The notes beneath the pieces are model-generated. The model made no database searches. It was not told the origin of the DNA and saw only the letters and a list, made by a program, of their open reading frames with translations. Positions 7,045-61,562 of a stretch of 64,000 nucleotides of DNA are shown here, piece after piece. This DNA is from Nostoc sp. DedVER02 (GTDB taxonomy: Bacteria > Cyanobacteriota > Cyanobacteriia > Cyanobacteriales > Nostocaceae): assembly GCF_034530675.2 (NCBI RefSeq), contig NZ_JAVRCP020000024.1:10690-74689 (forward strand), read 5' to 3'. Both the position numbers and the translations under genes were made by a program. Position 1 is the stretch's first letter; every line of letters begins with the position of its first letter.

Positions 7045-7047
7045 ATA

Positions 7048-7081
7048 GTCATTTGTCATTTGTCATTGGTCATTTGTCATT
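7048..7081 (+). repeat. STRR-type heptamer array (TCATTTG/TCATTGG)
   Basis: gtcatttgtcatttgtcattggtcatttgtcatt lies directly after the flv4 stop. Confidence 0.9.
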
Positions 7082-7167
7082 AAGCTCCCCTGCTCCTCGG
7101 TCACTGAGCGTAGCCGTTCGCGCAGCGTCTCGTAGAGAAGTGCTGCTCCCTACCCCACATAGACGCG

Positions 7168-7713: not shown

Positions 7714-7716
7714 TAG

Positions 7717-7799
7717 GAAGCAGGGGAGCGGGGGGCAGGGGGCAAGGGAGAGAATAAACCTCTTCCCCCCCTGCTCCCTGCTCCCTGCCCCTCTGCCTC
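7717..7799 (+). other. Imperfect G-rich/C-rich inverted repeat (intercistronic stem-loop candidate)
   Basis: gaagcaggggagcggggggcagggggcaagggagag - aataaacc - tcttcccccctgctccctgctccctgcccctctgcctc. Followed by (CCCAATT)x3 at 7804-7825. Confidence 0.5.
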
Positions 7800-7833
7800 T
7801 TGTACCCAATTCCCAATTCCCAATTAAAAGATT

Positions 7834-36057: not shown

Positions 36058-36160
36058 TGATTTTAGAAAATCTGGACTAAATTAATCAAAATAGATTAGT
36101 TTAGTAAACTAGCAAAAAATTGCATATTGATGGAGAGTTTCACATGGTTAAGAAAGGATA

Positions 36161-37483: not shown

Positions 37484-37534
37484 TTGTTATCTTTAACCTT
37501 TGTCTCCCAATGAAATTAGCCAAATTAATCAAAA

Positions 37535-38461: not shown

Positions 38462-38480
38462 TAACTAATCTAGGAAATTC

Positions 38481-39767: not shown

Positions 39768-41019
39768 TACTCAGGATATTGGTGGAGGTGCTGCAAGGGC
39801 TGCATATCGCTTGCACACAGGTTTGCAAGATATAGGGCTACAGTCACAAATGCTAGTTCAAGAAAAATCTAGTAATGATAAAACAGTAATTGCCCCGAAG
39901 CTTAGGCTATTTCAAGGCATTGCTAAAGCTAAAATCACATTTGAAAGCCTACCATTAAAGCTTTATCCTCAAAAGAAACCTACTCCATTTTTTATTCAAT
40001 GGTTGCCAGATAGAGTTATCCCTAAAGTTGCCCAGATTAATCCAGATATAATCAACTTGCATTGGATTAGCGCAGCTTTCATACAAATAGAAACGTTACC
40101 TAAATTGAAGCGTCCTTTAGTTTGGACTCTCCATGATATGTGGGGTTTTACTGGAGGATGCCACGTTATTGGAGAATGCGATCGCTACAAAATATCTTGT
40201 GGAGCTTGCCCCCAACTCAACAGTAGTAATGAATGGGATTTATCCCGTTGGGTATGGCGGCGCAAAGTAAAAGCTTGGAAAAATCTTAACTTAACTCTGG
40301 TTTCCCCAAGTTCTTGGTTAGCAGAGTGCGCTCGTTCTAGTTCTTTGTTCCAGAATTTGCGAATCGAGGTGATTCCTCACGGATTAGATACCCAAAAATA
40401 TCGACCTATTAATCAACATTTTGCACGAGAAACACTGAAGTTACCTCAAGATAAGAAGCTAATTCTCTTTGGAGCAATAGAAGCAACAAGCGATCGCAAT
40501 AAAGGATTTCATTTGTTGCAGCCAGCTTTACAAGGATTGAGCAAATCTGGGGGTAACAAGGATTTTGAAGTAGTGATCTTTGGGGCATCTCAACCTGAAA
40601 ATCCGCCTGATTTAGGATTCAAAACATACTATTTAGGGCATTTATATGATGATATCTCTTTAGCAACTGTTTACTCAGCAGCTGATGTGATGCTTGTACC
40701 GTCTCTGCAAGAATCTTTTGGACAAACAGCTTCTGAATCTCTTGCTTGCGGTACTCCAGTCGTTGCATTTAATTCTACTGGTTTAAAAGATATTGTCGAT
40801 CATCAGGAAAACGGCTATTTAGCTAACCCTTATGAAGTTGACGATTTCGCCAAAGGAATTGCCTGGGTACTTGAAAATGAGCAGAGGTTAGAAAAATTGT
40901 CATTCTATGCTCGCAAAAAAGCAGAACAAGAATTTACTCTGGAACTCCAAGCACGTCGCTATTCAGCTTTGTTCCAGGAAATATTGATGATAACAAAGAA
41001 ATCTTCATTTAGTAACTAA
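39748..41019 (+). CDS. Family 4 (GT-B) glycosyltransferase
   Basis: VPSLQESFGQTASESLACGTPVV (E-x7-E region). Overlaps the upstream gene by 20 nt. Confidence 0.75.
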   Translation: MKVLHLSTQDIGGGAARAAYRLHTGLQDIGLQSQMLVQEKSSNDKTVIAPKLRLFQGIAKAKITFESLPLKLYPQKKPTPFFIQWLPDRVIPKVAQINPDIINLHWISAAFIQIETLPKLKRPLVWTLHDMWGFTGGCHVIGECDRYKISCGACPQLNSSNEWDLSRWVWRRKVKAWKNLNLTLVSPSSWLAECARSSSLFQNLRIEVIPHGLDTQKYRPINQHFARETLKLPQDKKLILFGAIEATSDRNKGFHLLQPALQGLSKSGGNKDFEVVIFGASQPENPPDLGFKTYYLGHLYDDISLATVYSAADVMLVPSLQESFGQTASESLACGTPVVAFNSTGLKDIVDHQENGYLANPYEVDDFAKGIAWVLENEQRLEKLSFYARKKAEQEFTLELQARRYSALFQEILMITKKSSFSN

Positions 41020-41043
41020 CTTAGTAAATCAATACTTCATAAT

Positions 41044-42060
41044 ATGTCAATTCCTATAGCTTTTATAATTTGTACAGAACCTGGGCGTTTAGAGGCTCAA
41101 TCTTTAATGCTTGCAGAAAGTATTCGTAAGTTCTGTGGAGAATTGAAAGATACACCTATATATAGTTTTCATCCTAGAGTGGGTGAACCTATATCAAAGC
41201 AAACCCAAAAAGCTTTTGAAGCGTTGCAGGTAAATCATCAACAACTTCCGATAAATCAAGAATTCCATGAATATTATTTAGCAAATAAGCCCCTAACTTG
41301 TGCCTATGCAGAACAAAATATTGATGCAGAAATATTAGTTTTTCTGGACAGTGACAAATGCTTTTTCTCTGAACCAAAAGAATTTTTATTACCCGCAAAT
41401 TGTAACGCTCGGTTACGTCCTGAGTATGGTCAAGGAATTGGTTCTACAGGTTTGCGAGACTCTCAAGAATGGTACTGGCAAAAATTATATGAAGTGTTGG
41501 GGGTAAAGCGTGAGGTATTTGTTGAAACACCAATCGGTAAGAAAAAAATTAGAGCTTATTGGAATTCGGGTTTGGTTGTTGTGAGAAGGAGTGCAGGTAT
41601 ATTTACAGCTTGGAAAGAGAATTTTGAAAAAGTAATGCGTCTTGATATCACTCCTCCTCAAGGTATTTATTTTGTTGAGCAGTCTGTTTTATCTGTAACT
41701 TTATGTGCATTGGAAGAAAATATCGAACATCTTCCTTCTAATTATAGTTATCCATTGCCTTTACATAACCGCTTATCACCAGAACTACAAATCAAACATT
41801 GGAATGATATTATATCAATTCATTATTTTAACTTATTCTTTTATAACGATTGGAATGCACAAATCAAAAAATTAAAGAAGCTTAATATAGATTCCGATAA
41901 ATATCGATGGTTATGTCAAGAGGTTGTCAGACTCCAAATGCCTCGCGTATCAGTTTTGCATCGATATATGTTGGTAGTTAGAAGAATGGAACAAAAATTA
42001 CGAAATTTTAATTTAGATATTAATTTAAGTGGTTGGATAGAAAAAATGGCTAAACTTTAA
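41044..42060 (+). CDS. Hypothetical protein, possibly a nucleotide-diphospho-sugar transferase
   Basis: FLDSDK (DxD-like) and YWNSGLVVV resemble the GT8-like fold. Weak. Confidence 0.3.
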   Translation: MSIPIAFIICTEPGRLEAQSLMLAESIRKFCGELKDTPIYSFHPRVGEPISKQTQKAFEALQVNHQQLPINQEFHEYYLANKPLTCAYAEQNIDAEILVFLDSDKCFFSEPKEFLLPANCNARLRPEYGQGIGSTGLRDSQEWYWQKLYEVLGVKREVFVETPIGKKKIRAYWNSGLVVVRRSAGIFTAWKENFEKVMRLDITPPQGIYFVEQSVLSVTLCALEENIEHLPSNYSYPLPLHNRLSPELQIKHWNDIISIHYFNLFFYNDWNAQIKKLKKLNIDSDKYRWLCQEVVRLQMPRVSVLHRYMLVVRRMEQKLRNFNLDINLSGWIEKMAKL

Positions 42061-42114
42061 ACGTAATCAAAATAGCTGCATTGATATTTTCCAAATAAAT
42101 TACATAAGGTAAAT

Positions 42115-43011
42115 ATGATGAAAAAAGCAAATATAGCTGTAGTTATGACCTGTCATAACAGGCGTAATATAACTCTCGCTTGTTTACACACTTTATATGA
42201 GCAAAAAACTAATTGTGATGTCTACCTAACTGATGATGGTAGTTCGGATGGAACTGCACAAGCCGTCAAAGCAGAATATCCAGAGGTACATATTCTTCAG
42301 GGTAATGGCAACTTATTTTGGGTGGGAGGGATGCATCTCGCCTTTGGTGAGGCGATAAAAAATCAATATGACTATTATCTGTGGTTGAATGATGACACAT
42401 TTCTAGAAGCTAATGCTATCAGTAAATTATTGCAGATTCATCAAAATTTATCTGAGCAAGGTTATCCAGACTCAATTGTAGTTGGTTCAACTAAAGATCC
42501 AATGACAGGAAAAGCAACTTATGGAGGTGCAGTAAAATCTAAAAAATGGTACTCCAACAAATTTGAGTTTTTAGAACCAAGTTCGATTATCCAACAATGT
42601 GATGCTATGTATGGTAACTGTGTGTTAATTCCTAAAACTGTTGCTGCAAAGGTTGGCAATATTGATACAGCTTTTATTCACAGTTTAGGAGATTTAGATT
42701 ACGCCCTCAGAGCGCGTAAATTAGGTTGTCAAATATGGGTAGCCCCTGGATATATTGGTACTTGTACTAAAAATTCCATTCGTAATAGTTGGGTAGATAC
42801 CAATTTAACTATATTGCAGCGCTTGAAAAAAGTACTGCAAATTAAAGGATTTCCATTAAAACCCTGGACTGTATTTTGTATGAGGCACTCTGGGCCATTA
42901 TGGATATTTTACTGGTTTTTACCCTACATTAGAGCAATTATTGGTTACAAAAACTTGGCAATTTCTCCTACATTCTCTGATGATATCAGCCAAACTAACT
43001 CGGAAATATAA
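42115..43011 (+). CDS. Family 2 glycosyltransferase
   Basis: VVMTCHNRRNITLACL, LTDDGSSDGT and WLNDD. Confidence 0.7.
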   Translation: MMKKANIAVVMTCHNRRNITLACLHTLYEQKTNCDVYLTDDGSSDGTAQAVKAEYPEVHILQGNGNLFWVGGMHLAFGEAIKNQYDYYLWLNDDTFLEANAISKLLQIHQNLSEQGYPDSIVVGSTKDPMTGKATYGGAVKSKKWYSNKFEFLEPSSIIQQCDAMYGNCVLIPKTVAAKVGNIDTAFIHSLGDLDYALRARKLGCQIWVAPGYIGTCTKNSIRNSWVDTNLTILQRLKKVLQIKGFPLKPWTVFCMRHSGPLWIFYWFLPYIRAIIGYKNLAISPTFSDDISQTNSEI

Positions 43012-43125
43012 TTTTGCTAATAGGATTTTTAACGAATAATATTTAGATAATTTATAACTATCTAAGCAAGTTAAAAAACTTTTAAAAAGTTCAATTTATT
43101 AAATGTTGAAATAATCAAACATGTT

Positions 43126-44277
43126 ATGGGAAAACGCTTACTAATTGTCTCAACTCTGGATTCAAGACAACCATTTGGTGCATTTACTAGACCTTTTTAT
43201 CTAGGACAATATCTTACTAAAGATTTTGATGTTTTTCAGATAGGATTAGATTGCTCATCTGTTAACTATGCTCCTTCTATTTCGGTTGGATCGAGAAGCC
43301 TAAAGTCATATATTCAAACTATAGAAAAGTGTGTCGATGAGTTTTGTCCAGATATCGTTTATGCTCAAGAAACTTTACCTGGATTAGCTGCTTTAATTTC
43401 ACTTAAGCTTAGGAAACATAAAAATTCCTTTCTTGTATTAGATTTTCATACATTTTCAGCGTATGAATACTGGATGCGTTTGTTTTCTGTTGCCAATCCT
43501 TTCAAAGAGTTTGTACAATGTATTAAGACATATATTGCTCAGGGAATTTTAATATTTTCTGGTAGTCCAATTATTGCAGCAGGTGACTCTATTCCCAAAC
43601 TAATTTCCCAGTGGTACGGTAAAACTCCACAGGAAATTTATAGTATTGGGAATGGAGTTACTGAAGACTTACTAAATACTGAATTGTTGTTGAGCAAAGA
43701 CCCATATCAAGCATTTAGACCAGCAAAGATTGTGGTTCTTATTGCTCCTAAAACATTTCAGTTTCCAAGTAATGATATGTCTGTATCAATGACTGTTGAG
43801 GTTGCAAAATACCTGGAAAGTCATCAGGAAAAAATACATTTTGTTGTTATAGGTAGGGATGGTAGCGATATTTCAGAACCAATACCTTCTAATATTTATT
43901 TTTTAGGGTTTTTACCAAAAAGAGAGGATTTTGTTGACCATGTTAAATATGCGGATATTGCTTTGCTACCATTCTCAAAACAAGCAGTAGCAGGTGGCGC
44001 TCGTAATAAAGCTTTGGATTATTTTGCTAGTAAAAAGTTAGTTGTATCAACACCAGAAGGCTTGCGAGGTTTAGAAGAGTTTCGACATTTGGAACATCTT
44101 CTAGTTACAGGATATTCTACTGAAGAAGTTGCTAATACAGTTTTGGATGCAGCCTCAAATTTTGATAAATATCAATCACTTGTAGATACAGCATATACTT
44201 TAATTACAGAAAAATATTCTTGGAATGCAAGAGCCCATAATATCGCCGAAATTCTGATGAAAGTAAGTCATTCGTAG
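43126..44277 (+). CDS. GT-B-fold (family 4-like) glycosyltransferase
   Basis: Size and the C-terminal half (LLPFSKQAVAGGARNKALDYFASKKLVVST) fit a divergent GT4. Confidence 0.55.
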   Translation: MGKRLLIVSTLDSRQPFGAFTRPFYLGQYLTKDFDVFQIGLDCSSVNYAPSISVGSRSLKSYIQTIEKCVDEFCPDIVYAQETLPGLAALISLKLRKHKNSFLVLDFHTFSAYEYWMRLFSVANPFKEFVQCIKTYIAQGILIFSGSPIIAAGDSIPKLISQWYGKTPQEIYSIGNGVTEDLLNTELLLSKDPYQAFRPAKIVVLIAPKTFQFPSNDMSVSMTVEVAKYLESHQEKIHFVVIGRDGSDISEPIPSNIYFLGFLPKREDFVDHVKYADIALLPFSKQAVAGGARNKALDYFASKKLVVSTPEGLRGLEEFRHLEHLLVTGYSTEEVANTVLDAASNFDKYQSLVDTAYTLITEKYSWNARAHNIAEILMKVSHS

Positions 44278-44411
44278 TTAAGTTTTTAAACTTAAGTTTT
44301 CTGAATATTTAAATTTTAAAATTATTTAAATATTGTTAGGAATTGATTTTTAAATAATCACTTTTGTTGTGACATTAACTCTCATAATTCTACAAATAAA
44401 AATCTTAAGTC

Positions 44412-45236
44412 ATGAAAAAACGATTTTCTTATAAACTTCTTGGTGTTAAAGTTGATGCACTCTCTATCCCAGAGCTAAATTCATTAATTGAAGAATCTGT
44501 TGAAAAACAACAGAAGTGGATTATTGCAAATCACAACTTGCATAGTCTTTACCTCTTTCATAATGACCCTGAAATGCAAGCTTTTTATGCCCAGGCTGAA
44601 TATATCCATATTGATGGCATGCCTTTATTGTTTATTGGAAAATTGTTAGGTTTTCCTCTAAAACGAGAACAAAGAGTAACCTATGCTGATTGGATATGGC
44701 CTCTGATGGCGGAAGCAGCTAATAAAGGCTGGCGTGTATTCTATTTAGGTTCAAAACCTGGAATTGCTGAACAAGGAGCAAGTATTTTGCGCGAGAAGTT
44801 TCCTGGTTTAGAGATTGCTTGCGCTCATGGCTACATTGATATGGATAAAGATAGTCAAGAAAATCTTGCTACTCTAGCTGCGATTAATGCTTACAAACCC
44901 CATGTATTAATGGTAGGAATGGGTATGCCACGCCAAGAGCATTGGATTTCTGAAAATCTAGAATATATTGATGCCAACACTATTTTGACTAGCGGAGCTT
45001 GTATGGACTATGTAGCAGGAGCAATACCCACTCCTCCTCGTTGGATGGGAAGGGTGGGTTTGGAGTGGTTGTATCGCTTGCTGTCTGAACCGAAAAGACT
45101 TTGGAGACGCTATTTACTTGAGCCTTGGTTTGTAGCCACTTTATTTTTACGGGAAATTTGGAGTATACCAAGTCAACAAAAAAAAAATAAAATGCTGTTA
45201 TTTCTCAGTACAAGATTTCACAAGTTTGTTGGGTGA
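44412..45236 (+). CDS. WecB/TagA/CpsF family (GT26) glycosyltransferase
   Basis: VDGMPLL-type region (IDGMPLLFIGK), MGMPRQEHWI and GACMDYVAG. Confidence 0.75.
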   Translation: MKKRFSYKLLGVKVDALSIPELNSLIEESVEKQQKWIIANHNLHSLYLFHNDPEMQAFYAQAEYIHIDGMPLLFIGKLLGFPLKREQRVTYADWIWPLMAEAANKGWRVFYLGSKPGIAEQGASILREKFPGLEIACAHGYIDMDKDSQENLATLAAINAYKPHVLMVGMGMPRQEHWISENLEYIDANTILTSGACMDYVAGAIPTPPRWMGRVGLEWLYRLLSEPKRLWRRYLLEPWFVATLFLREIWSIPSQQKKNKMLLFLSTRFHKFVG

Positions 45237-48262: not shown

Positions 48263-51200
48263 TTACTGACTGGTGATATCATCGCAGAGGTAGCGATCGT
48301 TTTTCATATTAGGGTTATTTTTCAGATAACCAGATGCCAACTTACAGGCACGCTTGAGTAAATCATCTAAATTATCATTAAGATATATTTTTCCCTCATT
48401 GCTATTAAGCTCAATTGTCTTATTGGTATTAAGGTTAAATCGATCGCCTAAGAAAGAACTGATGGGATAGAGTAAGTAAGGATCTTTCGTAAACCAACTA
48501 TTCAGAAAATATAGACCTGTATTAGAATCAGAACCAACAGCCAGCATTCTGTTGTAATTATCAAAACTTAAGGTATAACTACTATAATCAGTCTTTAATG
48601 GTTCAACTTTTCCATTATCTAAATTCCACAATTTAGCCGAAGATCCACTAACAAAGGCAATCTTTTTATCATCAGCTTGGAAGCGTATATTTGTAATTTT
48701 ATCAGGATCAGAAATGGTTGGTTTTTGTAATTTACCATCAAGATTCCAGAGTCTTATAATTTTGTCATCACTAGCGGAAGCAATAATTTTTCCATCATGA
48801 GTGAAACTCACGCTATTGACTTTATCACTCTGTTTTATAATCGGTTTAAGCAATTTACCATTTCTATTCCAAAACCTTACTGTTTTGTCGTCACTAGCAG
48901 AAGCGATGATTTTTTTATTAGGGCTGAATACAACACTATTAACCCAATCAGTATGACCCGATAAGGTTGCTAGCGGCTTGCCTTTTAAATTCCAGAGTTT
49001 TAAACTATCATCTTTACTAACGAAAGCAACTGTTTTTTTATTAAAATTAAACCTAATCAAAGAATCTATATTATTACATAAAACATTGACATGACCTTTA
49101 ATAGATTTTAACTCTTGAAAATTGGCATTATCTTCAATACTCCAAAACTTCATAATATACTTAGAACGATAAATATCATTCGACAAATAAGTTTTGCAGC
49201 TAGTAGCACCAATGATTTTTCCATCAGCACTAAAGCTAACCTTATCAATGCTAATATCATCATTTGGTTTATTACCAAATCCTGAAAGTGGTTTGATAAA
49301 ATTACCGTTGCTGTTATAGATATTCACAGTGTTATCAGCACTGGCAGAAGCAATGTATTTGTTATCAGAACTAAACGCAACATCATTAACACCTTTAATG
49401 TGCTTTTGTAAAGTCAGAGGTTCATAGTTGGATTTTTTAAGCAAAAGCTGGTTTATATCCCAAATCTTTATAGTATTATCAGCACTGCTAGTTACAATTT
49501 TTGTACCATCAGGGCTAAAATCTACTTTCGTGATTGTGTCATTATGTCCTTTGAGTGTTGGGCGTGGTTCTCCCTCAACAGTCCATAGGTTGACAGTATA
49601 ATTCTTGTTAATAGAAGTAATGTACTTGCCATTAGGACTAAATTTAGCGCTGATCATGATATAGTTCTCAAGAGATTGAGGTGGTTGGCTATTGCTGATA
49701 TCCCAAATTTTTATCTCACCACTATTAGCGCTAACTGACATGATCTTTTTGTCATTTGGACTAAACTCTACGCTTTGTACCTTGGAATTATGCCCAATCA
49801 ATGGCTTAAGGGGAGTACCATCACTTTTATAGAGTTTGACTAAATTGTCATCGCCGAGAGCAAGCATCTTGCTATCATGACTAAATATAACACTTGTGAC
49901 TTTATCACTATCTACTTTTAAGGCTTGAATTAAACTGCGATCGCGGCTATTCCAAAGTTGCACTTTATTGTCATGACTGATAGTAGCTATTATCTGACTA
50001 TTAGGGCTAAAGCTCACATTGGTAACTTGTTTTGTGTCTCCCTTTAAATGTCCTATAAATTTTCCGTCACTACTGCGCCAGAGTCTAACAAAATTATCTG
50101 CACTGGCACCAGCAACCAAATTACCATCAGGGCTAAAGTCAATGGTTGTGATCTTATTGGTGCTACCTTTTAAAGTAATTTCCTTGTTGGTATCTAGTTT
50201 CCAGAGCTTTAAGATATCGTCAGAGCTTCCAGTTGCAAGGGTTTGATTATCTGGACTAAAGCTAAGAATTGAACTATCTCCTGGGATAGTTTTGATGTGA
50301 GTGCCATTACGGTTTTGAAGTTCTATACTATTGTCAGAACTACCAAGAGGGACTGTTTGACCATCAAAACTAAACTCTATTTTCCTATTTGTATCTTCAT
50401 ATCTATCGGTTCTCTGGAATGAGGATAATTTATTGTTCTCAATATCCCAAATTTTCACAACTCCATCTTTACTAGCTGATGCAAGTAGCTTGTTATCAGG
50501 ACTAAAGCTTGTATAAGTAATACTATCATCATGTTTAAAATTATTGTAAATAGAACATTGAGCTTGAAACATTCTAGTTCTGTATAAACTTTTCTTATCT
50601 TCACTCTCCTGGAATATGACCGATTGGTTATCAAAACTATTATTTATAAAATCTCCCAATCCAAATGAATTCTTACAACCATTCTCAACACTTTTGATGA
50701 GGTGTGGTTTATCACCAGTAGACCAAACTCTTAGATTTCCCTGTTTATTAAACAAGCTAATAGCGTCACCATTGTTATTGAAATTCATGGTAAATGTGCC
50801 AGAATCATAAATCTCAATAGGCTTATTTTCAATTTTTTTTGGTGTAAGTTTCCAAAGTTTAACAGTGTCATACCGTCCCCCTGTAGCAACTGTCTTGTTG
50901 TCAGGACTAAAACTTACAATTATGTTTTTGTCATTAAATCTTTGTGGTAAATTTAAGAGTTTACCATCTTGCCAACTCCAAATTTTAACTGTTTTATTCT
51001 TAGTGGTAGTGGCTAGTAGTTTATCGTTAGGGCTAAATGTAATAAAGCCTAGACCATCTTTATCAATTTTCAAAATTTTTATTGGTTTAAATTCAGCAGT
51101 ACTCCAGTTTTTACCTTCAGGAATATTCCAGATTTTTGCATTACCATCTTGGCTGACGGTAGCTAACATTTTTCCATCCGAGTTGAAGCTAATAGATGTT

Positions 51201-54200
51201 ACACTTTTTTTGTGAGCTGACCAGCTTCTTTCTTGACCATCAGAAATATTCAATATTTTGACTTTGCCATCTTCACTTGCCGTAGCTAACATTTTGCTAT
51301 CTTGGCTAAAACTAAGGACTGTAATTGCTTTATTATCGTACCCTTCTACACGGTTGATTTCTTTAATTTTCTGAATTGCATTACCCAGATTTGAAATAAC
51401 CTTTAGCCGAGTTTCAGGTATCACCCCTATTGATAAAAACTTCAGTTTTTTACCTACTTTAATAGCTGATACTAGCTCTTCAAGCCCTATGTCATCTTTT
51501 GAAGAAATATCTGATGTCAGGGAAGTGTTGATGTAAGCTGCTGTAACTCCTACTGCGATTACACTTATTGCACTTATTAATCCTATTAATGTAACAGTTT
51601 GTTTGCGTGCAGTTCTTAGCTGTTGTGTCAAAACCTGATTGAGTTTGGCTTCGGTGAGTTTTCGTTGTTCTTTTTCTTTCTCCAATTCAGCAATTAATCG
51701 GGCTGATTGTTGTTCACGAACAAATGGTACTAGATAGTCATGAACCAATTGATATCTGTCAGCCGGAAATCCTGGCACTTGAAATACTAAGCCTGATTTC
51801 ACTAGGATTTTCAAAATTAAATCTAATCTTGCAGGCTCTAATGCTAAATCTGCTTCTAATTCAGCACGATTTTTCAGAGGACGAGTATTATTTTCATCAG
51901 TTAACAAATACAAAACTAGCTTGGCGAACTGTTCGTTATTGTTACCACAATCTTTAACTACTTCTTCTAAGAAGCGCCCTACCAATTTTTCTTTAGGGCC
52001 TTGTTCTTGGTACTGAATCAAAGTTGTAATTTTCTCAGTTTGCAGTTGCGCTCCTACAACTTGTAATTCAATGGGGCGAATTTCGTTGAAATCTCTAGCT
52101 AAATCTCGTACTAGCTCATCAATTAGCGGTGGCTCTAGGTAAAACTGAGAACTTTCAGTTAAGCTTTGAATTACAGAGCGAGCATCTTCCGGCGAAAAGT
52201 TCCCTAAGTAATAAAGAATTTTTTTATCTAATATGTTGTTATCAATTGCATCCAAATGGGTTAAGCGATTACACTCTAGTAAATAATGGAGATAATCTTC
52301 TCTAAGAGACAGAATAATTTTTACATAAGGAATATTAAGACAATCTCGGATAAATTCAAAAAACGGTCTCCTTTTATCTTGGTCTTTATAAGCAAAAAAG
52401 AACTCTTCAAACTGGTCAAAAATCAGAACAGTTAACAAACCTTTCTCTATATTTTTATTCAACTCTTCTACAAAACCTGCCATTGAGTCTAAAAACAGAG
52501 GAAAGCTTAAGCCTCTAACTTCTTCTAGTGATTCTACTAAGCGACTTCCTAAAAGTTTTGTCCAATCTGTATAAACTTGCAAAAGAACAGGCACAACATC
52601 ACGAGCATCTATGGCTCTTTGTTTTAAAGCTGGTAATAATCCTGCCTGAACCAGGGAACTTTTACCTACTCCTGATTGACCATAAATGACCGTCAATTTG
52701 TGGTCATCACGACTGATTCTTTCAATCAATCGATTCACATCTTGCATTCTTCCAGAAGCAGCAATCTCTTGGGTTACTGCTGCTTTTGGATCGGCCACTG
52801 CAAGTCCAGGATTAATAACTTGGAGTTTAGATTGTAAGCGTCCTGCACCTACAAAAGCTCGTAATCCATACTGTTGCTCAATTGAACGTTGCTCTAGTTT
52901 AACTTGGAATGCTTCTAAATAATTACCTTGGTCAAAGTAGAGCGATCGCAGTTTCGCCAAAATGCGAATATATAGCAGTGGATCGTGTTGAGGATTACTT
53001 TCAGAATGAGCGGTTTCTAAATTAGCGATCGCCTCTGGAACCTGATTAATATTTTGTTGAGCTTCTGCTAATAAAAGTAAGTATAAATTTTTATAAAATT
53101 TGTGTTCCCACTCACAATTAATTATTTCTTCTGAGGAAATATTGGCATTCGTTTGTAATGCTAGTTCTGCATATTCTTTAGCCTCTTCCCATTGAGATTT
53201 TTTCAGCAATACCTCAGCCATGAATCCATAACTGTAGGCAAGTCTGATTGGTTCAGGGTAAGTTTGGTGTAGCTCAATAGCTACTAACGCAACTTTTTCT
53301 AACTCATCGTACGCTTCTAATCTGGTTAAAACTTCACCCCAAGCGTTAATAAATTTTGCTGCTAAATCTGGGTATTTTTGCTGCCTAAAACCCTCAACAC
53401 ATTTTTGAAAGTAATCTTTAGCTTTTAGGCAAGCTTCGTAATATTCAGAACGATGCAAAATCGCATACTGTTCCCACCAAAAACCAAGATGCCAAAGTAA
53501 ACATCCGTAACGTTTCAAATCATCAGATGATAGATTTTGGTTATTTTTGACTTTCTTTTCCCAAACAGCTATACTTTGATCATAATAATTTTTCGCTTCA
53601 GATTTATGTCCATTAGCATCTGCTTCCCGACCTAGCAAAAATTGTAAGCTTGCCTCTAGTTCAGGCTCTAATTTTTCTATAGATATTTGTAAATCTCTAA
53701 CAGCAGAATCAATTTCCCCTAAATGGAGAATACCAAGGTCAAGATTTAAGTAAGCATTATCCACAAACTTTCCAGCACCGACATTAATAATTGCTGCAAA
53801 TAGGGAATTAACAATTTGGTGCAGATTGTTGATTAACTGATTCGTAGCAATTTTAAACTTAATTGAGTTACCTGTCCAACTCTTAAAGTCAGGCATTAAT
53901 TGAATCAATTTTTGGAAGGTTTGATCATTTACCCAAATAACTATGGGAAACTGGAAATTCTTACGAAACTCCTCTCTTACCTGATTTGTAGAAATTAAAA
54001 GTTGGTCAATTGCATCTACTAATTCCAAATCAAATATCATCAAAGCTTGAGGTAGTTGATTTCCCAGGTTAGCTTCAATTGTTGTATAAAGTGTTTTGAT
54101 AGATTTTGACAGATGTAGCTCTCGAATCTCAACTTGACATTCTTGCTTGATCTGCTGCACCATCTGGTCTCGCAAACTGCAATAGTTACAACGTGCCAAA

Positions 54201-54304
54201 ATTAACGCAAAGTGTCCCTGAGAATTCGTAATTGAGCGGATTAGTTTTTTCAGGGAGCGTTCATTGTAGACAGCTACATCTTCAGGTTGATAAGAGTCAC
54301 TCAT
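48263..54304 (-). CDS. Giant STAND-type NTPase (2013 aa): degenerate NTPase-like N-domain, TPR-like repeats, active P-loop NTPase, winged-helix-like region, TM helix, ~1000-aa WD40 array
   Basis: Walker A YGQSGVGKSSLVQAGLLP (nt ~52655-52681), Walker B-like LTVLIFDQFEEFF. TM helix TVTLIGLISAISVIAVGVTAAYI (nt 51533-51598). Many SFSPD(G/N)K...(L/I)W WD40 units. The C-terminal LDDLLKRACKLASGYLKNNP tail is typical of cyanobacterial NTPase-WD40 proteins. Confidence 0.8.
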   Translation of the reverse strand: MSDSYQPEDVAVYNERSLKKLIRSITNSQGHFALILARCNYCSLRDQMVQQIKQECQVEIRELHLSKSIKTLYTTIEANLGNQLPQALMIFDLELVDAIDQLLISTNQVREEFRKNFQFPIVIWVNDQTFQKLIQLMPDFKSWTGNSIKFKIATNQLINNLHQIVNSLFAAIINVGAGKFVDNAYLNLDLGILHLGEIDSAVRDLQISIEKLEPELEASLQFLLGREADANGHKSEAKNYYDQSIAVWEKKVKNNQNLSSDDLKRYGCLLWHLGFWWEQYAILHRSEYYEACLKAKDYFQKCVEGFRQQKYPDLAAKFINAWGEVLTRLEAYDELEKVALVAIELHQTYPEPIRLAYSYGFMAEVLLKKSQWEEAKEYAELALQTNANISSEEIINCEWEHKFYKNLYLLLLAEAQQNINQVPEAIANLETAHSESNPQHDPLLYIRILAKLRSLYFDQGNYLEAFQVKLEQRSIEQQYGLRAFVGAGRLQSKLQVINPGLAVADPKAAVTQEIAASGRMQDVNRLIERISRDDHKLTVIYGQSGVGKSSLVQAGLLPALKQRAIDARDVVPVLLQVYTDWTKLLGSRLVESLEEVRGLSFPLFLDSMAGFVEELNKNIEKGLLTVLIFDQFEEFFFAYKDQDKRRPFFEFIRDCLNIPYVKIILSLREDYLHYLLECNRLTHLDAIDNNILDKKILYYLGNFSPEDARSVIQSLTESSQFYLEPPLIDELVRDLARDFNEIRPIELQVVGAQLQTEKITTLIQYQEQGPKEKLVGRFLEEVVKDCGNNNEQFAKLVLYLLTDENNTRPLKNRAELEADLALEPARLDLILKILVKSGLVFQVPGFPADRYQLVHDYLVPFVREQQSARLIAELEKEKEQRKLTEAKLNQVLTQQLRTARKQTVTLIGLISAISVIAVGVTAAYINTSLTSDISSKDDIGLEELVSAIKVGKKLKFLSIGVIPETRLKVISNLGNAIQKIKEINRVEGYDNKAITVLSFSQDSKMLATASEDGKVKILNISDGQERSWSAHKKSVTSISFNSDGKMLATVSQDGNAKIWNIPEGKNWSTAEFKPIKILKIDKDGLGFITFSPNDKLLATTTKNKTVKIWSWQDGKLLNLPQRFNDKNIIVSFSPDNKTVATGGRYDTVKLWKLTPKKIENKPIEIYDSGTFTMNFNNNGDAISLFNKQGNLRVWSTGDKPHLIKSVENGCKNSFGLGDFINNSFDNQSVIFQESEDKKSLYRTRMFQAQCSIYNNFKHDDSITYTSFSPDNKLLASASKDGVVKIWDIENNKLSSFQRTDRYEDTNRKIEFSFDGQTVPLGSSDNSIELQNRNGTHIKTIPGDSSILSFSPDNQTLATGSSDDILKLWKLDTNKEITLKGSTNKITTIDFSPDGNLVAGASADNFVRLWRSSDGKFIGHLKGDTKQVTNVSFSPNSQIIATISHDNKVQLWNSRDRSLIQALKVDSDKVTSVIFSHDSKMLALGDDNLVKLYKSDGTPLKPLIGHNSKVQSVEFSPNDKKIMSVSANSGEIKIWDISNSQPPQSLENYIMISAKFSPNGKYITSINKNYTVNLWTVEGEPRPTLKGHNDTITKVDFSPDGTKIVTSSADNTIKIWDINQLLLKKSNYEPLTLQKHIKGVNDVAFSSDNKYIASASADNTVNIYNSNGNFIKPLSGFGNKPNDDISIDKVSFSADGKIIGATSCKTYLSNDIYRSKYIMKFWSIEDNANFQELKSIKGHVNVLCNNIDSLIRFNFNKKTVAFVSKDDSLKLWNLKGKPLATLSGHTDWVNSVVFSPNKKIIASASDDKTVRFWNRNGKLLKPIIKQSDKVNSVSFTHDGKIIASASDDKIIRLWNLDGKLQKPTISDPDKITNIRFQADDKKIAFVSGSSAKLWNLDNGKVEPLKTDYSSYTLSFDNYNRMLAVGSDSNTGLYFLNSWFTKDPYLLYPISSFLGDRFNLNTNKTIELNSNEGKIYLNDNLDDLLKRACKLASGYLKNNPNMKNDRYLCDDITSQ

Positions 54305-55605
54305 AGTTTAAATTTCTTCGATTCTGCGATCGCTGGGTTAATATCAAACCAGCGTCCATCAACATCCCGGTATTCAAATAAAAACATACTTCGTAAAAGA
54401 GTTTGGTATTCGTCCTCTCCTTTGACATTATCCCTCTGTTGCAAAACCTGTAGCAGTAGCGCCCACTCGCTATCACTAATTGCTGATACCAAATCATCCC
54501 GATACTCGCGGATGACCATTTCCAGACAGTTCCGCCCAATAGGGGGATCACCTTCTTGCAAGCAACTGTAAAGTAAAACTAACAGATTTCGCACATGTCC
54601 ACCACTAACTCGGCAAAGACGATCTAAGGTTTCATCTGAATCAAAAACTTCATTAATATGACTCAAACGTTGCGTTTCTCCTAGCCAGGGAAACGCCCGT
54701 GCTAAAACCATTTGTTGTAGTAGCTTCATACCTTCTAGGTTGTAGGTTCCCTCACGATTCTTGACTGTCACCATTGGTAATACTACAGGTTTGATCCCGA
54801 AACGATTAGTAAGAGTGCTTAATTCATTGGAGAAAATTAACACTAGAGGAATGGTATAAACCAAATGACAATTGAGTTTTTTTAACTGCTCACCCCGATC
54901 AATGAATAGATATTCTGGTTGAGAACGACCAGAGGCTTTAGGAGAGATATCGACGCGATCAAGATTATCAATAATTACCACTAATCCTTGATAACCTTGT
55001 AGCTTCAATTGCTCTTTAGCACGCTCTAGTACCTGTTGATTAATAGCTTCTAATATGCCACTAGTCCGAGGTTCTAGGTATTGGCGCAACTGGCTCCGCA
55101 GCCTGGGACTATCTTTAGTCTTGGCAGTGACTTTACCAATTCCCAAAGGTAATGAAAATTCAAATTCTGGAACTACTGGTGTTTGTAAAAAATCCGCAAT
55201 TTCATTAAACAAATCGACAAAATAGCTTGGTCTAAGTTTGATTTTAACCTTTTCTAAACTGGCGCTAACTTGACGAGTTATTGCTAACAAAATATCGCTG
55301 ACATCCACATCTGCCATATCTAAATCAGCACTGGACTCAAAGTAGACTACATGAAAGCCTTGCTTTTCTAATTCATCTTTGAGTCGAAATAGTTCTGTAG
55401 ATTTACCACAGCCAATATGTCCAGTGAATAATTGGCAGGTTGACTCATCTGGTTGATTAGCAATCGTCCGCCGTAAACGTTGAATTACATTGCCTCCACG
55501 CACTGGCGAGAAGTCAATATAGTACTGTTGGTCTTCTTTATTCTCAATTTTTAAAGTCTTACTGGGATTACAGGCATTAAAAAACTTAATAGGGTCTAAA
55601 GCCAT
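54301..55605 (-). CDS. P-loop ATPase (STAND/AAA-like), translationally coupled to the giant NTPase-WD40 gene
   Basis: Walker A TGHIGCGKSTELFRL, Walker B-like LVVIIDNLDRVD, helical C-terminal half. Its stop overlaps the downstream start (ATGA at 54301-54304). Confidence 0.65.
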   Translation of the reverse strand: MALDPIKFFNACNPSKTLKIENKEDQQYYIDFSPVRGGNVIQRLRRTIANQPDESTCQLFTGHIGCGKSTELFRLKDELEKQGFHVVYFESSADLDMADVDVSDILLAITRQVSASLEKVKIKLRPSYFVDLFNEIADFLQTPVVPEFEFSLPLGIGKVTAKTKDSPRLRSQLRQYLEPRTSGILEAINQQVLERAKEQLKLQGYQGLVVIIDNLDRVDISPKASGRSQPEYLFIDRGEQLKKLNCHLVYTIPLVLIFSNELSTLTNRFGIKPVVLPMVTVKNREGTYNLEGMKLLQQMVLARAFPWLGETQRLSHINEVFDSDETLDRLCRVSGGHVRNLLVLLYSCLQEGDPPIGRNCLEMVIREYRDDLVSAISDSEWALLLQVLQQRDNVKGEDEYQTLLRSMFLFEYRDVDGRWFDINPAIAESKKFKL

Positions 55606-58054: not shown

Positions 58055-58831
58055 CTAATTCCTTATATCCCACATATCTTGGTAAATTGGATGGATTTCA
58101 CGCACTAATTTCCATAAACGACGTCTTGCTCGGTAGGCATACCAAACTAAAATGACTAAAGTCTGCCAACTCATCAATATACAAATATTTTGAGTTCCTA
58201 GTGCAATAGCGATAACTAGAAACCCAAATAAAAAGACACGAAGCATTTCATGGGGTAGTCCTTCTAACCACTTACTTTTAGTATAACGATAAACAAAATA
58301 GGGTATCCAGACACTAACCACTTGTGCTACAAACAACATTGACCCAATAATATTGGTTTTTGTCACTACAAGAAAACCAAATGACTTGTAAGTTTGCAAT
58401 ACAAAGTAAAGCCAAGTTCTTGTCTGCTTATCAATATAGTTGTAAACAAAGAAACTTAGGCGTACAACCAGGAGTAAACCTATCCATAATGCCATTTTAA
58501 CTAAAGCTGTTTTTAAATCTAGGGTGCTAACAATGGAAGCCAAAGTAACATCACTTGAGACAACTTTAGCCAATTCCAAAATAATTAGCCCAGGGACAGC
58601 AAAAATTACAGCCCAAATCCAAGCCTGCCATACATTGATTCGGTTCTTGTACTGTTGGTAAGTTGCTGATAGGACTGGTTTTTTCTCAAACCGTTCAGCA
58701 ACTATGTCATTTTCTACATAGCCTAGTTCATAGATGCACCAGAAAGAAAGTAATACAAAAAACATACCAGTGGCATGAATAAGAGGGAGCATCCACTTTT
58801 GGCAGAAACACTCAAATAGCAAGTAAACCAT
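58055..58831 (-). CDS. Multi-pass membrane protein, N-terminally truncated by the IS (the first ~16 codons are IS-derived)
   Basis: About 7 hydrophobic segments. Codons for MVYLLFECFCQKWMLP lie inside the IS left end and its inverted repeat. Native sequence begins near 58784. Confidence 0.4.
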   Translation of the reverse strand: MVYLLFECFCQKWMLPLIHATGMFFVLLSFWCIYELGYVENDIVAERFEKKPVLSATYQQYKNRINVWQAWIWAVIFAVPGLIILELAKVVSSDVTLASIVSTLDLKTALVKMALWIGLLLVVRLSFFVYNYIDKQTRTWLYFVLQTYKSFGFLVVTKTNIIGSMLFVAQVVSVWIPYFVYRYTKSKWLEGLPHEMLRVFLFGFLVIAIALGTQNICILMSWQTLVILVWYAYRARRRLWKLVREIHPIYQDMWDIRN

Positions 58832-59967
58832 TCAGATAAGCACAACGAACAGAAAGGATTTGGTTGACACTCCCAACATTCCACTGTGCGCCAGAAATTT
58901 TCATCCTAGCTCCAATCTGTTTAATAGCAGACTCGACTGCACCAGAACCAATAGAACAAAGTTGTTCAGCTTGGTAATAAGTATAGTTGACAATACGGGA
59001 GCAATGTTTTTCGAGATAAGCGATGAAGTTCTTAGCTTGTTTGCCTCGGCAATTATGAAATAAAGCCTTGGCTTCTTCAACTTGACCCTGCCATAAAAGA
59101 GTTTCAGCTGCTTTGAGTCGCTTTAAAGAACCACCCACTTTGTAAAGATTTTCCTTGAGATGATACCAATCTAAAATTTCCCAACGCTCAAAATTCTCAC
59201 TTTTACCAAACTCTTTGACGAGATTCCATACACCATCATGACCATCTCCTAAGCAGACTAACGGGTTAACTAGACGCTGGCTATTGATATAATCAATTAA
59301 TGATTGGTTGTCATCAAAAAACGCACCATAGTAAATCCCTTGCAGACGAACGGTTTTATAGTCTCGCCAGTGACAGCCTGCTTTCGGTTTACCCCTAAGT
59401 CGGACTTTTCCTCCATCTACGCTAACTTCTGAAACTGATTGTTTAGCAAGTGGTAGTTGAAAATCTTGTGACATGACTAGTTGTTGTTGTGTTGAGTGAC
59501 CAACTTTTACTCCTGTCAATGCCTCAATCTCGATTTCTGCTTTTTGGTAGGATTCGTTAGCTGATAACCTCAAACAGCACTTTTGAAGTAATGGACAAAA
59601 GCTTCCTTCTTGGCTTTAAACCTAGTCTAATAAGCTGTTTGGCTTTTAATTTCAGTTCCCCTACTAGGCTTTTTATTTTCCTGGTTTTACCTACTTTTGT
59701 TCCAGTTTTTTGTTCGATAAAAAAAGGGCTATTTCTGGGCTGACTAATTCTAATACTTGACTGCGAACTGTTTTTTCTATGCCTTCGAGGTCTGCCAGCT
59801 TACTTTTATCTGCTTCTTCATACAGCAGTGTTGACAATTCTTGTAAGCAGGCTTTGATCCGTTCTTGTTTCTCTTGGTTCATTGTCAGCGATCGCACAGG
59901 GTTCTTTCCCTTTACATTTTCCCATAAATGGTAAATCTTCCAAAACTGGATGCTCCCCATGTGTTCA
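58785..59967 (-). mobile_element. ISKra4-family insertion sequence (~1.18 kb) with terminal inverted repeats
   Basis: IRs are gggagcatccacttttgg (58785-58802) and ccaaaactggatgctcccc (59949-59967), matching at 17 of the 18 aligned positions. Internal transposase motifs include LSANESYQKAEIEIEALTG, GGKVRLRG, LGDGHDGVWN and ILDWYHLKENL. Confidence 0.7.
58812..59882 (-). pseudogene. ISKra4-family transposase, reading frame broken at least twice
   Basis: Three frame segments: 59691-59882 (MNQEKQERIKA...), ~59578-59690 (VGKTRKIKSLVGELKLKAKQ...) and 58812-59573. Confidence 0.6.
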
Positions 59968-60901
59968 ACTTCAAAACAGATCAGGAAAAGCGAAACAAGA
60001 CATCATATTAGAGAAATGCTATAGAAATTCTCGCCCACTCCTAACTTCTGCACATGCTTTGGGTTTTGGAATATATAGAAATGAAGGATTAATCCAAATG
60101 TTTGATGATGCAGGATTATGGAGAGATATTGGTTACGAAGTAGAAGAAGGAAACTTAGATGAAGGAAAGCCTGTAAAGCTTAGTAGAACTAGCGATACTA
60201 GTCCAATATTCCTTGAATCTCACTCAACTATTGATGACTTAATTATATTTAAGTCATTTAATAATAGCCACGAACAAAATGAATGGTTAGTCAATGAAAT
60301 AGAGAAGAACATTAGAGAAGATGAATTAAAGTATGATGACATAATGATTATTCATTCTAACCCGTTTACAACTAAAGATGCCGTTGGAAGCTCTAGGGCT
60401 TTACTCTTTGAAAGAAAGATTAATTCTAACCTAGCTGGAGTAACGAATTCCCGTGATGAATTTTTTAGTGAAGAAGCAGTCACTTTCACGGGTATCTATA
60501 GAGCAAAGGGAAATGAAGCTGCGATGATATATGTTATAAATGCCCATTAATGCTTTTCTGGTACAGAGCTTTCTCAAAAAAGAAATATCTTGTTTACTGC
60601 CATGACAAGAAGTAAAGCTTGGTTAAGAGTATTAGGCTATGGTGAAAATATGAGGGGTTTGGTGAAAGAATTTGAAGAAGTTAGAAAAAGAAACTTTGTT
60701 CTTGAATTTACCTATCCTACAGAAAAAGAACGAATAAGAATGAATGTTATCAATAGAGATATGAGTCCTAAAGAGCGTGAGCGTAGAAGTCAGAACCAAA
60801 GAAATTTAAAAGATATTGTTGAAGATTTAGACAATGGTGTTATACACAAAGAAGATTTGCCACAAGAACTAATAGAAAAATTGAAAAATTACCTACTTTG
60901 A
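59968..60901 (+). pseudogene. SF1 (UvrD/AAA_30-like) helicase, C-terminal half only, with an in-frame TAA at 60548-60550
   Basis: CYRNSRP (motif IV-like), VTFTGIYRAKGNEAAMIYVINA, then after the stop, in the same frame, NILFTAMTRSKAWLRVLG (motif VI-like). The N-terminal ATPase half is missing at the IS boundary. Confidence 0.6.
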
Positions 60902-60902
60902 A

Positions 60903-61562
60903 ATGACTAGTCATCAAGAAATTTATAAAGAAATTAATACCATAACTCAAAAACTAATAGAAGTTAGTTTGTGTGACCAACAAAATTTTCCGTCATCTAC
61001 ATCTATTGGTAAAGATAGTTATGAGATTGCATATTCTGGTATGCAGGATCTCTCAATAGCACTGAAAAATATTGATTACAAGGACATATATCATGAACTA
61101 AACAGAGGTAAAAACTACAACTTCAAAATGATTGATGGTGCGTTAATACAACTTTTGTATACTTATAAAAAGTCCGAGCTAATTTCACATAGGCTTGCTT
61201 TTTTACCATCACCATTTTTAGAAGTTTTCCAGAATGAGCCTACAATTTATGAAGAAGACGAAATATATGCAGATATAATAGCAAAAAATATATTACCAGT
61301 ACCAATTAGGTTCGATTATGATCCAGACAATCATAAAGAATTAGATCACCCCAAATGCCATCTAACCTTGGGACAATTTAAAAATTGTAGAATACCTGTT
61401 TGTTCCCCAATCGCACCGAGTACTTTCATATCCTTTATTATTCGTAGTTTTTACAATACTGCTTTTAGAAAATTTACAGATGATCTTACTTTTTCAAGCA
61501 ACCTTTTCGACAAAACGATAGCTGATGCAGAGAAGAAAGTATTGCACATAGCTATTTATTAA
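60903..61562 (+). CDS. Hypothetical protein, DUF2290-like helicase partner (assignment from memory)
   Basis: 219 aa, starting 1 nt after the helicase stop. HPKCHLTLGQFKNCRIPV resembles the conserved core I recall for DUF2290. Confidence 0.35.
   Translation: MTSHQEIYKEINTITQKLIEVSLCDQQNFPSSTSIGKDSYEIAYSGMQDLSIALKNIDYKDIYHELNRGKNYNFKMIDGALIQLLYTYKKSELISHRLAFLPSPFLEVFQNEPTIYEEDEIYADIIAKNILPVPIRFDYDPDNHKELDHPKCHLTLGQFKNCRIPVCSPIAPSTFISFIIRSFYNTAFRKFTDDLTFSSNLFDKTIADAEKKVLHIAIY

Follow-up and report, generated by a model that had tools for sequence, protein, structure and literature searches.

Bacterial NLR-like STAND proteins are intensely studied, and most of the characterized ones carry a recognizable N-terminal effector. 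The question of what takes the place of the effector when none can be recognized is raised by a locus of the cyanobacterium Nostoc sp. DedVER02 (RefSeq assembly GCF_034530675.2, contig NZ_JAVRCP020000024.1, positions 10,690 to 74,689). The window, that is, the whole stretch of DNA analyzed here, comprises 64,000 nucleotides (nt), and all positions below refer to it. The locus encodes a giant STAND protein and, upstream of it, a partner ATPase. The family of the giant is among the more abundant STAND architectures in filamentous cyanobacteria and has no recognizable N-terminal effector; in its stead stands an unannotated N-terminal domain, termed here the N-domain, which is predicted to be a pseudo-ATPase head and is tied by gene linkage to the separate, initiator-like ATPase. 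The main features of the locus are as follows (aa, amino acids).

48263..54304, minus strand: giant open reading frame (ORF), 2013 aa; order N-domain, TPR-like region, nSTAND1, transmembrane (TM)-like helix, WD40 array, C-terminal cap
53765..54304, minus strand: N-domain, aa 1-180; its alpha/beta core (aa ~7-150) is predicted to be AAA+-like and degenerate, and a helix follows
54301..55605, minus strand: partner ATPase, 434 aa; AAA+ core, helical insert of ~110 aa, lid and C-terminal winged helix, as predicted by AlphaFold2

The translation of the giant ORF is identical to WP_322641312.1 (unclassified Nostoc). The Nostoc punctiforme PCC 73102 protein ACC78809.1 falls into the same 90%-identity cluster and thus shares at least 90% of its residues with the giant.

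Predicted fold of the N-domain and loss of the Walker A motif

Searches of Pfam, NCBIfam, PADLOC and the sequences of the PDB gave no match to residues 1-200 of the giant. An earlier interpretation made from the letters of the window (hereafter the sequence-only reading) had noted a strand-helix rhythm in residues ~1-170 and proposed a nucleoside triphosphatase (NTPase)-like module without Walker A at the N-terminus, followed by TPR-like helices and an active STAND core. The motifs on which it relied are located where it placed them: FALILARCN at aa 32-40, ALMIFDLELV at aa 87-96, FPIVIWV at aa 119-125, GQSGVGKSS at aa 542-550 and LIFDQFEEFF at aa 627-636.

The N-domain was modeled with AlphaFold2 from alignment A1, which contains cyanobacterial relatives retrieved by a word-based protein search (54 found, many of them 155-180 aa long). 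The model has a mean predicted local distance difference test score (pLDDT) of 86.5 and a predicted template modeling score (pTM) of 0.77. Its strands (aa 33-38, 60-64, 87-91, 120-125 and 144-149) bear out the proposed rhythm and alternate with helices at aa 7-27, 42-55, 72-80, 99-116, 127-136 and 154-177. The order of the elements is that of an AAA+ core, with five strands and an extra helix (helix 0) ahead of strand 1. In a Foldseek comparison with the PDB, all of the 50 best matches of the model are P-loop NTPases, mostly of the AAA+ class. The best one is RAD17 of the RAD17-RFC complex (7z6h_K, E 1.2e-4, query-based template modeling score (TMq) 0.58); others are RuvB, RFC1, the AAA+ domain of Sir3, ORC subunits, archaeal Orc/Cdc6, Skd3, ClpA and thymidine kinases. 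The Sir3 domain, which is among these 50, is naturally inactive. Four structures (1w5t, 1w5s, 7tjh_D and 5uj7_C) are matched by both the N-domain model and the model of the partner ATPase. A non-NTPase fold with a known function, which would have refuted the sequence-only reading, was not found for residues 1-170 by structure prediction.

Profile-profile comparison, the other check proposed with that reading, gave a different result from fold prediction: hhalign detected nothing significant between the N-domain and either the partner ATPase or nSTAND1 (E 0.16-0.6). The alignment with the ATPase core from which the helical insert was removed (E 0.16, non-significant) is yet in register, as it pairs helix 0 with helix 0 (RSITNS/RTIANQ), RCNY with GCGK, and the fourth strands with each other. 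The N-domain could accordingly, as a hint only, be a degenerate copy of the core of its own partner. Since no significant profile-profile similarity was found, the evidence for P-loop ancestry is the predicted structure, from which the N-domain is quite likely to be the core of a P-loop NTPase of the AAA+ type.

A generic Rossmann-like three-layer alpha/beta domain, not derived from an NTPase and similar to AAA+ by convergence, would equally lack sequence-level similarity to any P-loop family. The Foldseek E-values are modest, and the total of 1606 weak matches is typical of alpha/beta sandwiches. Against this origin speak the exclusively P-loop composition of the 50 best structural matches, the presence of the helix ahead of strand 1 that is typical of AAA+ and STAND proteins, and the register of the non-significant alignment with the ATPase core; we consider it most improbable.

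The conserved positions of the N-domain were examined in an alignment of 84 homologues, in which the following elements stand out.

54182..54193, minus strand: R38-C39-N40-Y41 turn from strand 1 to helix 1, at the place of Walker A (homologue alignment and model)
54017..54046, minus strand: strand 3 and loop ALMIFDLELV, aa 87-96, equivalent of Walker B; consensus hhhhGLE
53954..53989, minus strand: TNQVREEFRKNF, aa 106-117, part of helix 3; conserved more strongly than any other motif of the N-domain
53930..53950, minus strand: strand 4 FPIVIWV, aa 119-125, followed by N/T126-D127 at the position equivalent to sensor 1

The loop between strand 1 and helix 1 consists of three residues in the model (C-N-Y, aa 39-41). 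C39 and N40 are kept in 83 of the 84 homologues; hence the replacement of Walker A is family-wide. The signature GK[ST] is absent from aa 1-170 of the giant in the window, and two homologues contain it somewhere within their first 170 aa. At the end of strand 3, the Walker B pattern hhhhD[DE] is not found in the family; L93 is invariant, position 92 is G in 73 sequences (D in the window), and only E94 is conserved (78/84). In the helix 3 motif N107, R110 and F113 are invariant, and E112 and R114 are kept in 81 and 79 sequences, respectively. Strand 4 has an invariant P120 and a nearly invariant W124 (79/84). It is followed by N (53/84) or T (26/84) at position 126, whose equivalence to sensor 1 is inferred from secondary structure only, and by D127 (83/84). 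In alignment A1 the invariant residues are S28, G30, F32, C39, N40, R110, E112, F113 and R114. The free-standing copies of the domain described below end at ~155-165 aa, so a lid would lie outside the conserved unit.

The best-conserved residues thus belong to helix 3 and to the loops after strands 1, 3 and 4, where the nucleotide site would formerly have been. Against three close orthologs the ratio of nonsynonymous to synonymous substitution rates (dN/dS) of the N-domain is 0.08-0.17. By these values and its near-invariant residues, the domain is under purifying selection and functional rather than decaying. Judged from its predicted fold, the N-domain derives from an AAA+/ASCE core and no longer has a Walker A, in agreement with the first of the two modules proposed by the sequence-only reading.

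As the loops of the former nucleotide site are the best-conserved ones, a non-canonical ligand site may be present. The N-domain would then not be inert: a remodeled pocket of C39, N40, E94, N/T126, D127, R110 and R114 would bind a small ligand, for example a signal derived from a nucleotide, or be catalytic, and the domain would act as a regulator or effector of the STAND protein. The top-conserved residues, among them an invariant Cys-Asn pair and a number of acidic and basic side chains, are indeed clustered where strands 1, 3 and 4 end on their C-terminal side, the nucleotide-binding place of ASCE NTPases. The domain also stands at the N-terminus, where STAND proteins typically carry their effector. 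On the other side, the three-residue loop between strand 1 and helix 1 is too short for phosphate binding, no Foldseek match is an enzyme other than a P-loop NTPase, and a ligand pocket would leave the strict linkage to the ATPase gene, described below, unexplained. This explanation appears very unlikely. A C-x5-R motif (C39...R45) like that of low-molecular-weight phosphatases was also considered and rejected, as about one fifth of the sequences have Q, A or T instead of R45 and the loop is too short.

Linkage of the N-domain to the ATPase gene

The partner is probably an active ATPase, as judged from its motifs, and the gene is connected with that of the giant by a four-nucleotide overlap.

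55396..55422, minus strand: ATPase Walker A GHIGCGKST, aa 62-70, invariant in 30 homologues
54955..54981, minus strand: ATPase Walker B VVIIDNLDR, aa 209-217, of the D-x-x-D type; D213, N214, L215, D216 and R217 invariant
54301..54304, minus strand: ATGA overlap of the ATPase stop codon and the start codon of the giant, read from the sequence

R268 ahead of strand 5 and the SGGHVR motif in the lid, with an Arg resembling that of sensor 2, are invariant as well. The AlphaFold2 model of the ATPase (pLDDT 82.3, pTM 0.85) has an all-helical insert of ~110 aa (aa 100-205) between strands 2 and 3. Its best Foldseek matches are Cdc6/Orc1 proteins (7tjh_I with E 6e-7, 2qby_A and 1fnn_A; E 6e-7 to 3e-6), followed by TnsC, RdrA, BrxC, CED-4 and mS29. 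Matches in Pfam are weak (AAA_22 with 27.7 against a threshold of 27, KAP_NTPase with 19.8 against 20, and also ATPase_2 and NPHP3_N); with scores at or below the threshold, membership in one specific Pfam family is not established. The ATPase is therefore described here as a predicted Cdc6/ORC- and KAP-like AAA+ protein with a winged helix. Its family is highly conserved and comprises more than 3500 clusters, whose members are named 'AAA family ATPase', 'P-loop NTPase fold protein' or 'KAP family' in the databases. The family has an invariant N-terminal motif, FFxACNPSKTL...YYIDF. The invariant Cys of its Walker A (GCGKST) parallels the invariant Cys of RCNY in the N-domain.

The ATGA overlap makes the two genes look translationally coupled, which suggests a two-gene operon. 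The conservation of this arrangement was assessed at 73 N-domain loci with at least 1.5 kb of upstream sequence. A homologue of the ATPase gene is located upstream on the same strand at 59 of them, with a gap to the N-domain gene of at most 60 nt in 31 cases, 61-700 nt in 21 and 0.7-3 kb in seven. At one further locus an ATPase homologue is found 6.7 kb upstream.

The linkage extends to N-domains that are not part of a giant. The contigs of five small N-domain proteins were inspected. In four cases the N-domain is encoded by an intact free-standing gene (155-180 aa) that directly follows an ATPase gene. The informative arrangements are listed by locus.

Symploca L002-L004: free-standing N-domain gene overlapping the ATPase gene by 4 nt; no giant nearby
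Coleofasciculus L086: ATPase, then free-standing N-domain; no giant nearby
L085: ATPase, free-standing N-domain, then a giant with its own N-domain
L087: giant, ATPase, free-standing N-domain, giant
L001, positions 6427-9539, Nostoc sp. GCA_036917695.1: decayed copy of the operon, with an in-frame stop in the ATPase gene

At the last locus the giant is shortened to an N-domain ORF of 161 aa, followed by TPR and WD40 fragments; nSTAND1 is not detectable in it. As the free-standing genes always follow an ATPase gene, the ATPase and the N-domain form the constant unit, to which the TPR-nSTAND1-WD40 body is mostly, not always, attached. A candidate Rosetta-stone fusion of the ATPase and the N-domain, P0136, was rejected, since it is a deletion remnant in which the N-domain of a giant has become attached to the middle part of an ATPase homologue.

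The free-standing genes could also be explained if the N-domain were a homotypic adaptor, similar to effector-associated domains (EADs): binding would then take place between free and fused copies, with the ATPase connected to them only via the operon. The N-terminal slot of nSTAND1 proteins is normally filled by EADs or effectors, according to Kaur et al. 2021 (PMC8195603). Free-standing copies adjoin giants that have a copy of their own (L085 and L087), as expected of a homotypic adaptor, and the tandem N-domain duplicate in the protein P0055 also counts in its favor. Yet none of the free-standing copies, those of L085 and L087 included, is fused to an effector, and they accompany the ATPase even where no giant is nearby (L002-L004 and L086). 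Moreover, Death-like domains, which are small and alpha-helical, account for nine of the 12 EADs described (PMC8195603), in contrast to the 150-aa alpha/beta core of the N-domain. We regard a homotypic adaptor as unlikely and prefer direct docking of the ATPase by the N-domain, which is considered below together with the remaining parts of the giant.

Central nSTAND1 module and WD40 array of the giant

The remaining regions of the giant are given below in the order of the protein.

52760..53764, minus strand: TPR-like helical region, aa 181-515; weak matches to TPR_12, TPR_2 and TPR_10
51728..52753, minus strand: nSTAND1 NTPase module with a helical and winged-helix part, aa 518-859; Pfam PF20703
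52655..52681, minus strand: nSTAND1 Walker A GQSGVGKSS, aa 542-550; GxSGVGKS in homologues
52397..52426, minus strand: nSTAND1 Walker B LIFDQFEEFF, aa 627-636, of the extended D-x-x-E-E type
51530..51595, minus strand: TM-like helix VTLIGLISAISVIAVGVTAAYI, aa 904-925; Kyte-Doolittle score 2.32 over 19 aa
48515..51427, minus strand: WD40 array, aa ~960-1930, fast-evolving; Pfam WD40 E 8.5e-116 in 14 stretches
48275..48370, minus strand: C-terminal cap LDDLLKRACKLASGYLKNNPNMKNDRYLCDDI, aa 1979-2010, with two conserved Cys, seen in the alignment of 49 complete homologues

The weak TPR matches of the giant span aa 219-430 and remain below threshold (TPR_12 with 28.3 bits versus a cut-off of 30.1); TPR_12 scores above threshold in homologues, which upholds the TPR-like helices of the sequence-only reading. 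The same applies to the active STAND core, which is identified in Pfam as nSTAND1 (PF20703; E 2.7e-32, 113.3 bits versus a gathering cut-off of 27.1). GxSGVGKS is present in nearly all homologues long enough to reach the NTPase region, the exception being the homologue L063. In alignment A2 the D, Q, F and E of Walker B are invariant, and GQSGVGKS, DQFEE and ASGR, a GR motif upstream of strand 1, are invariant or nearly so. By its motifs, the central P-loop of the giant is part of an intact STAND module, and the layout of the family resembles that of NLR-type receptors.

Between nSTAND1 and the WD40 array, 22 uncharged hydrophobic residues (VTLIGLISAISVIAVGVTAAYI) are preceded by a coiled coil rich in K and R. 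Of 56 long homologues, 49 have an equivalent segment with a score of at least 1.6, but in a few of these the segment picked is the winged-helix stretch LDLxLEILV instead; the charges flanking the TM-like helix are ambiguous in many homologues. The helix coincides with a break in divergence. Identity to the ortholog of Nostoc UCD121 is 90-97% over aa 1-900 and 44-59% over aa 900-2000, and dN/dS is 0.38-0.45 for the WD40 array versus 0.04-0.06 for nSTAND1. Both observations fit a sensor under relaxed or diversifying selection. The synonymous divergence (dS) from UCD121 (L005) is a mosaic, with 0.08 for the N-domain and TPR region, 0.33 for the ATPase, 0.39 for nSTAND1 and 0.86 for the WD40 array, which points to recombination inside the operon. 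Tandem Repeats Finder revealed no tandem repeat of the WD40 period in the DNA of the array, and a recently amplified propeller was rejected for this reason.

The cap corresponds to the motif LDxLLxRGCxWxxDYLxxNPxVxxSDRxLCDxI, in which the two Cys are ~25 residues apart. It is visible in most of the 49 complete homologues, and 33 of the 49 follow a strict pattern. The two cysteines could form a disulfide or a metal site. Taken together, the TM-like helix, the divergence and the cap suggest that the WD40 array is a fast-evolving sensor, which may be situated outside the cytoplasm.

A possible role of the N-domain in docking the ATPase

Based on the gene association, we suggest that the N-domain docks the partner ATPase onto the STAND receptor, and we give this a probability slightly better than even. 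The N-domain would serve as a pseudo-ATPase protomer to which the Cdc6/KAP-like ATPase binds, by analogy with the non-catalytic AAA+ subunits of ORC or RFC, or with the AAA+ domain of Sir3. Ligand sensing by the WD40 array could lead to oligomerization of nSTAND1 and thereby to clustering of the N-domains, which in turn would assemble or switch the ATPase. The winged helix of the ATPase would be the likely output, being the sole candidate that was seen. This direction of signaling and a role of the system in defense or conflict are conjectural. The sequence-only reading had proposed that an inactive head might be an adaptor for the partner ATPase. The genomic side of this proposal has gained strong support from the 59 of 73 loci and from the free-standing copies; the contact itself we infer.

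Several observations weigh against docking. The Foldseek scores of the N-domain are moderate (best E 1e-4, TMq 0.4-0.58), and its profile has no significant similarity to that of the ATPase or nSTAND1, as described above. The 84 homologues have no conserved Arg at aa 127-143, where the arginine finger would be expected. Thirteen of the 73 giants have no ATPase gene upstream, one of them keeping a short fragment of it. A search for an alternative partner upstream at these 13 loci, made in ORF translations only, retrieved only unrelated ORFs of the housekeeping type. The dS values relative to Nostoc UCD121 (0.08 for the N-domain and TPR region, 0.33 for the ATPase) imply that the N-domain segment and the ATPase can recombine independently. 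Finally, no effector is recognizable in either protein, and comparison with PADLOC-DB v2 yielded only local P-loop matches with E>=1e-3.

A more far-reaching scheme can be imagined, in which the N-domain and the Cdc6/ORC-like ATPase would be a heteromeric pseudo-AAA+/AAA+ output module of a transmembrane bacterial NLR. A fast-evolving, extracytoplasmic WD40 sensor would signal through the membrane via nSTAND1 oligomerization and assemble a DNA-binding, initiator-like ATPase, so that in filamentous cyanobacteria periplasmic non-self or phage cues would be coupled directly to replication or chromosome control with no toxin effector. We consider this scheme quite unlikely.

The docking model provides a concrete, testable hypothesis for signaling by the giants, and the presence of the ortholog ACC78809.1 in the genetically tractable Nostoc punctiforme PCC 73102 makes it directly testable.

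Distribution of the family

The sequence-only reading had considered the combination of such a head with a large WD40 array to be unusual. This is refuted by the size of the family. A search with the N-domain profile retrieved 1815 protein clusters when E<=1e-3 was required, and 602 clusters when the limit was E<=1e-30, numbers far above chance expectation. Among the 150 best profile matches, the proteins are 1200-2060 aa long and the domain almost always occupies their residues 1-172. At least 574 N-domain loci were identified when each GTDB species was represented by one genome. The order of N-domain, TPR-like region, nSTAND1 and WD40 is the same at every locus where the contig and the reading frame extend far enough, and it was confirmed with Pfam in nine further representatives. 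The N-domain was seen in two contexts only, the nSTAND1 giants and the free-standing form. In P0055, two tandem N-domains with CCN in place of RCN precede the TPR and nSTAND1 regions.

The best 80 N-domain loci are cyanobacterial; one contig is labelled Acetobacteraceae and is taken to be a mis-binned metagenome contig. Among the genera represented by the best loci are Nostoc, Calothrix, Tolypothrix, Scytonema, Fischerella, Leptolyngbya, Coleofasciculus, Symploca, Lyngbya, Oscillatoria and Microcoleus. Several genomes have multiple copies, with at least four loci in Symploca SIO3C6. The giant thus belongs to a large family that is essentially all cyanobacterial. Definition of the N-domain would annotate thousands of N-termini now called 'hypothetical', as well as small ORFs.

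Comparison with known systems

Degenerate AAA+ cores act as protein-protein interfaces beside active protomers in the complexes of ORC, RFC/RAD17 and Sir3. ORC, the RFC/RAD17 clamp loaders and Sir3 are the best structural matches of the N-domain, and ORC/Cdc6 also that of the ATPase. In contrast to these proteins, the N-domain apparently has no lid domain, and there is no sequence homology.

Inactive NTPase modules have been described in STAND-based and related bacterial systems. The iSTAND and iSTAND2 domains of the MoxR-vWA ternary conflict systems have eroded NTP-binding motifs (Kaur et al. 2020, PMC7159879; Kaur et al. 2021, PMC8195603). They resemble the N-domain in that an eroded NTPase is kept as a structural or sensing part of a multi-gene, NTPase-centered system enriched in multicellular cyanobacteria. 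However, no match to them in sequence was found, and the N-domain comprises only a core of ~150 aa, fused in cis upstream of an active nSTAND1. Further, its partner is a Cdc6/KAP-like ATPase instead of MoxR and vWA proteins, with no recognizable EAD or effector. An FtsH-type component with an inactive N-terminal AAA+ copy has also been described in the ternary systems.

The two-gene nSTAND2 operon encodes one active and one eroded STAND NTPase, which are predicted to form a hetero-multimer (PMC8195603). The adjacency of genes for an active ATPase and for an eroded NTPase, and the logic of a mixed active/inactive assembly, are shared with the locus studied here. The NTPase family is another one, and the inactive nSTAND2 protein keeps its arginine finger and carries GT4 or HEPN effectors, whereas the N-domain has no conserved Arg where the finger would be expected and is joined to another STAND module, which is active, and to a WD40 sensor.

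By its definition (PMC8195603), nSTAND1 is the NTPase at the center of predicted counter-invader systems that carry EADs or effectors at the N-terminus. Proteins of this clade combine such N-termini with C-terminal lectin, FGS or WD40 sensors (PMC8195603; PMC10907252). The giant has the same PF20703 NTPase and the same succession of an N-terminal module, a nucleotide-binding oligomerization domain (NOD) and a repeat sensor. It differs in its N-terminus, a predicted Walker-A-less AAA+-like domain with TPR in place of a described EAD or effector, in the TM-like helix between NOD and sensor, and in having an ATPase as its operon partner.

In the Npun_R6612 WRAP operon of Nostoc punctiforme, a STAND-WD40 protein is transcriptionally coupled to a TIR-STAND protein (summarized in PMC9218822). 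Here too, two cyanobacterial genes that encode STAND/AAA+-type ATPases form a unit, and one of the proteins has an array of WD40 propellers. In the WRAP operon, however, the blades of the WD40 propellers are nearly identical to each other and the partner has TIR or caspase effectors, whereas at the locus studied the partner ATPase lacks an effector domain and the DNA has no repeat of the WD40 period.

In the searched passages of Kaur et al. 2020, Kaur et al. 2021 and a 2026 STAND survey, neither the N-domain, nor its pairing with a Cdc6/KAP-like ATPase, nor the operon is described. Literature searches by accession returned nothing on these proteins. As far as we found in these texts, an inactive NTPase module in a STAND-based system is already known, and this particular N-domain and its partner are apparently new.

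Other features of the window

A DUF2290 protein (E 5e-68) is encoded at 60903-61562 on the plus strand, within the region 59882-61562. It is preceded on the same strand by ORFs 59882-60550 and 60590-60901, which have no Pfam match and, judging from their translations, look like fragments of a broken helicase-type gene. The region may be a decayed two-gene module of the defense type. A transposase-like ORF without a Pfam match is located at 58812-59573 on the minus strand. On the other side of the giant, a series of plus-strand ORFs at 35101-45236 resemble in their translations glycosyltransferases, a Wzx-type flippase and an O-antigen-ligase-like membrane protein, and they probably constitute a polysaccharide biosynthesis cluster.

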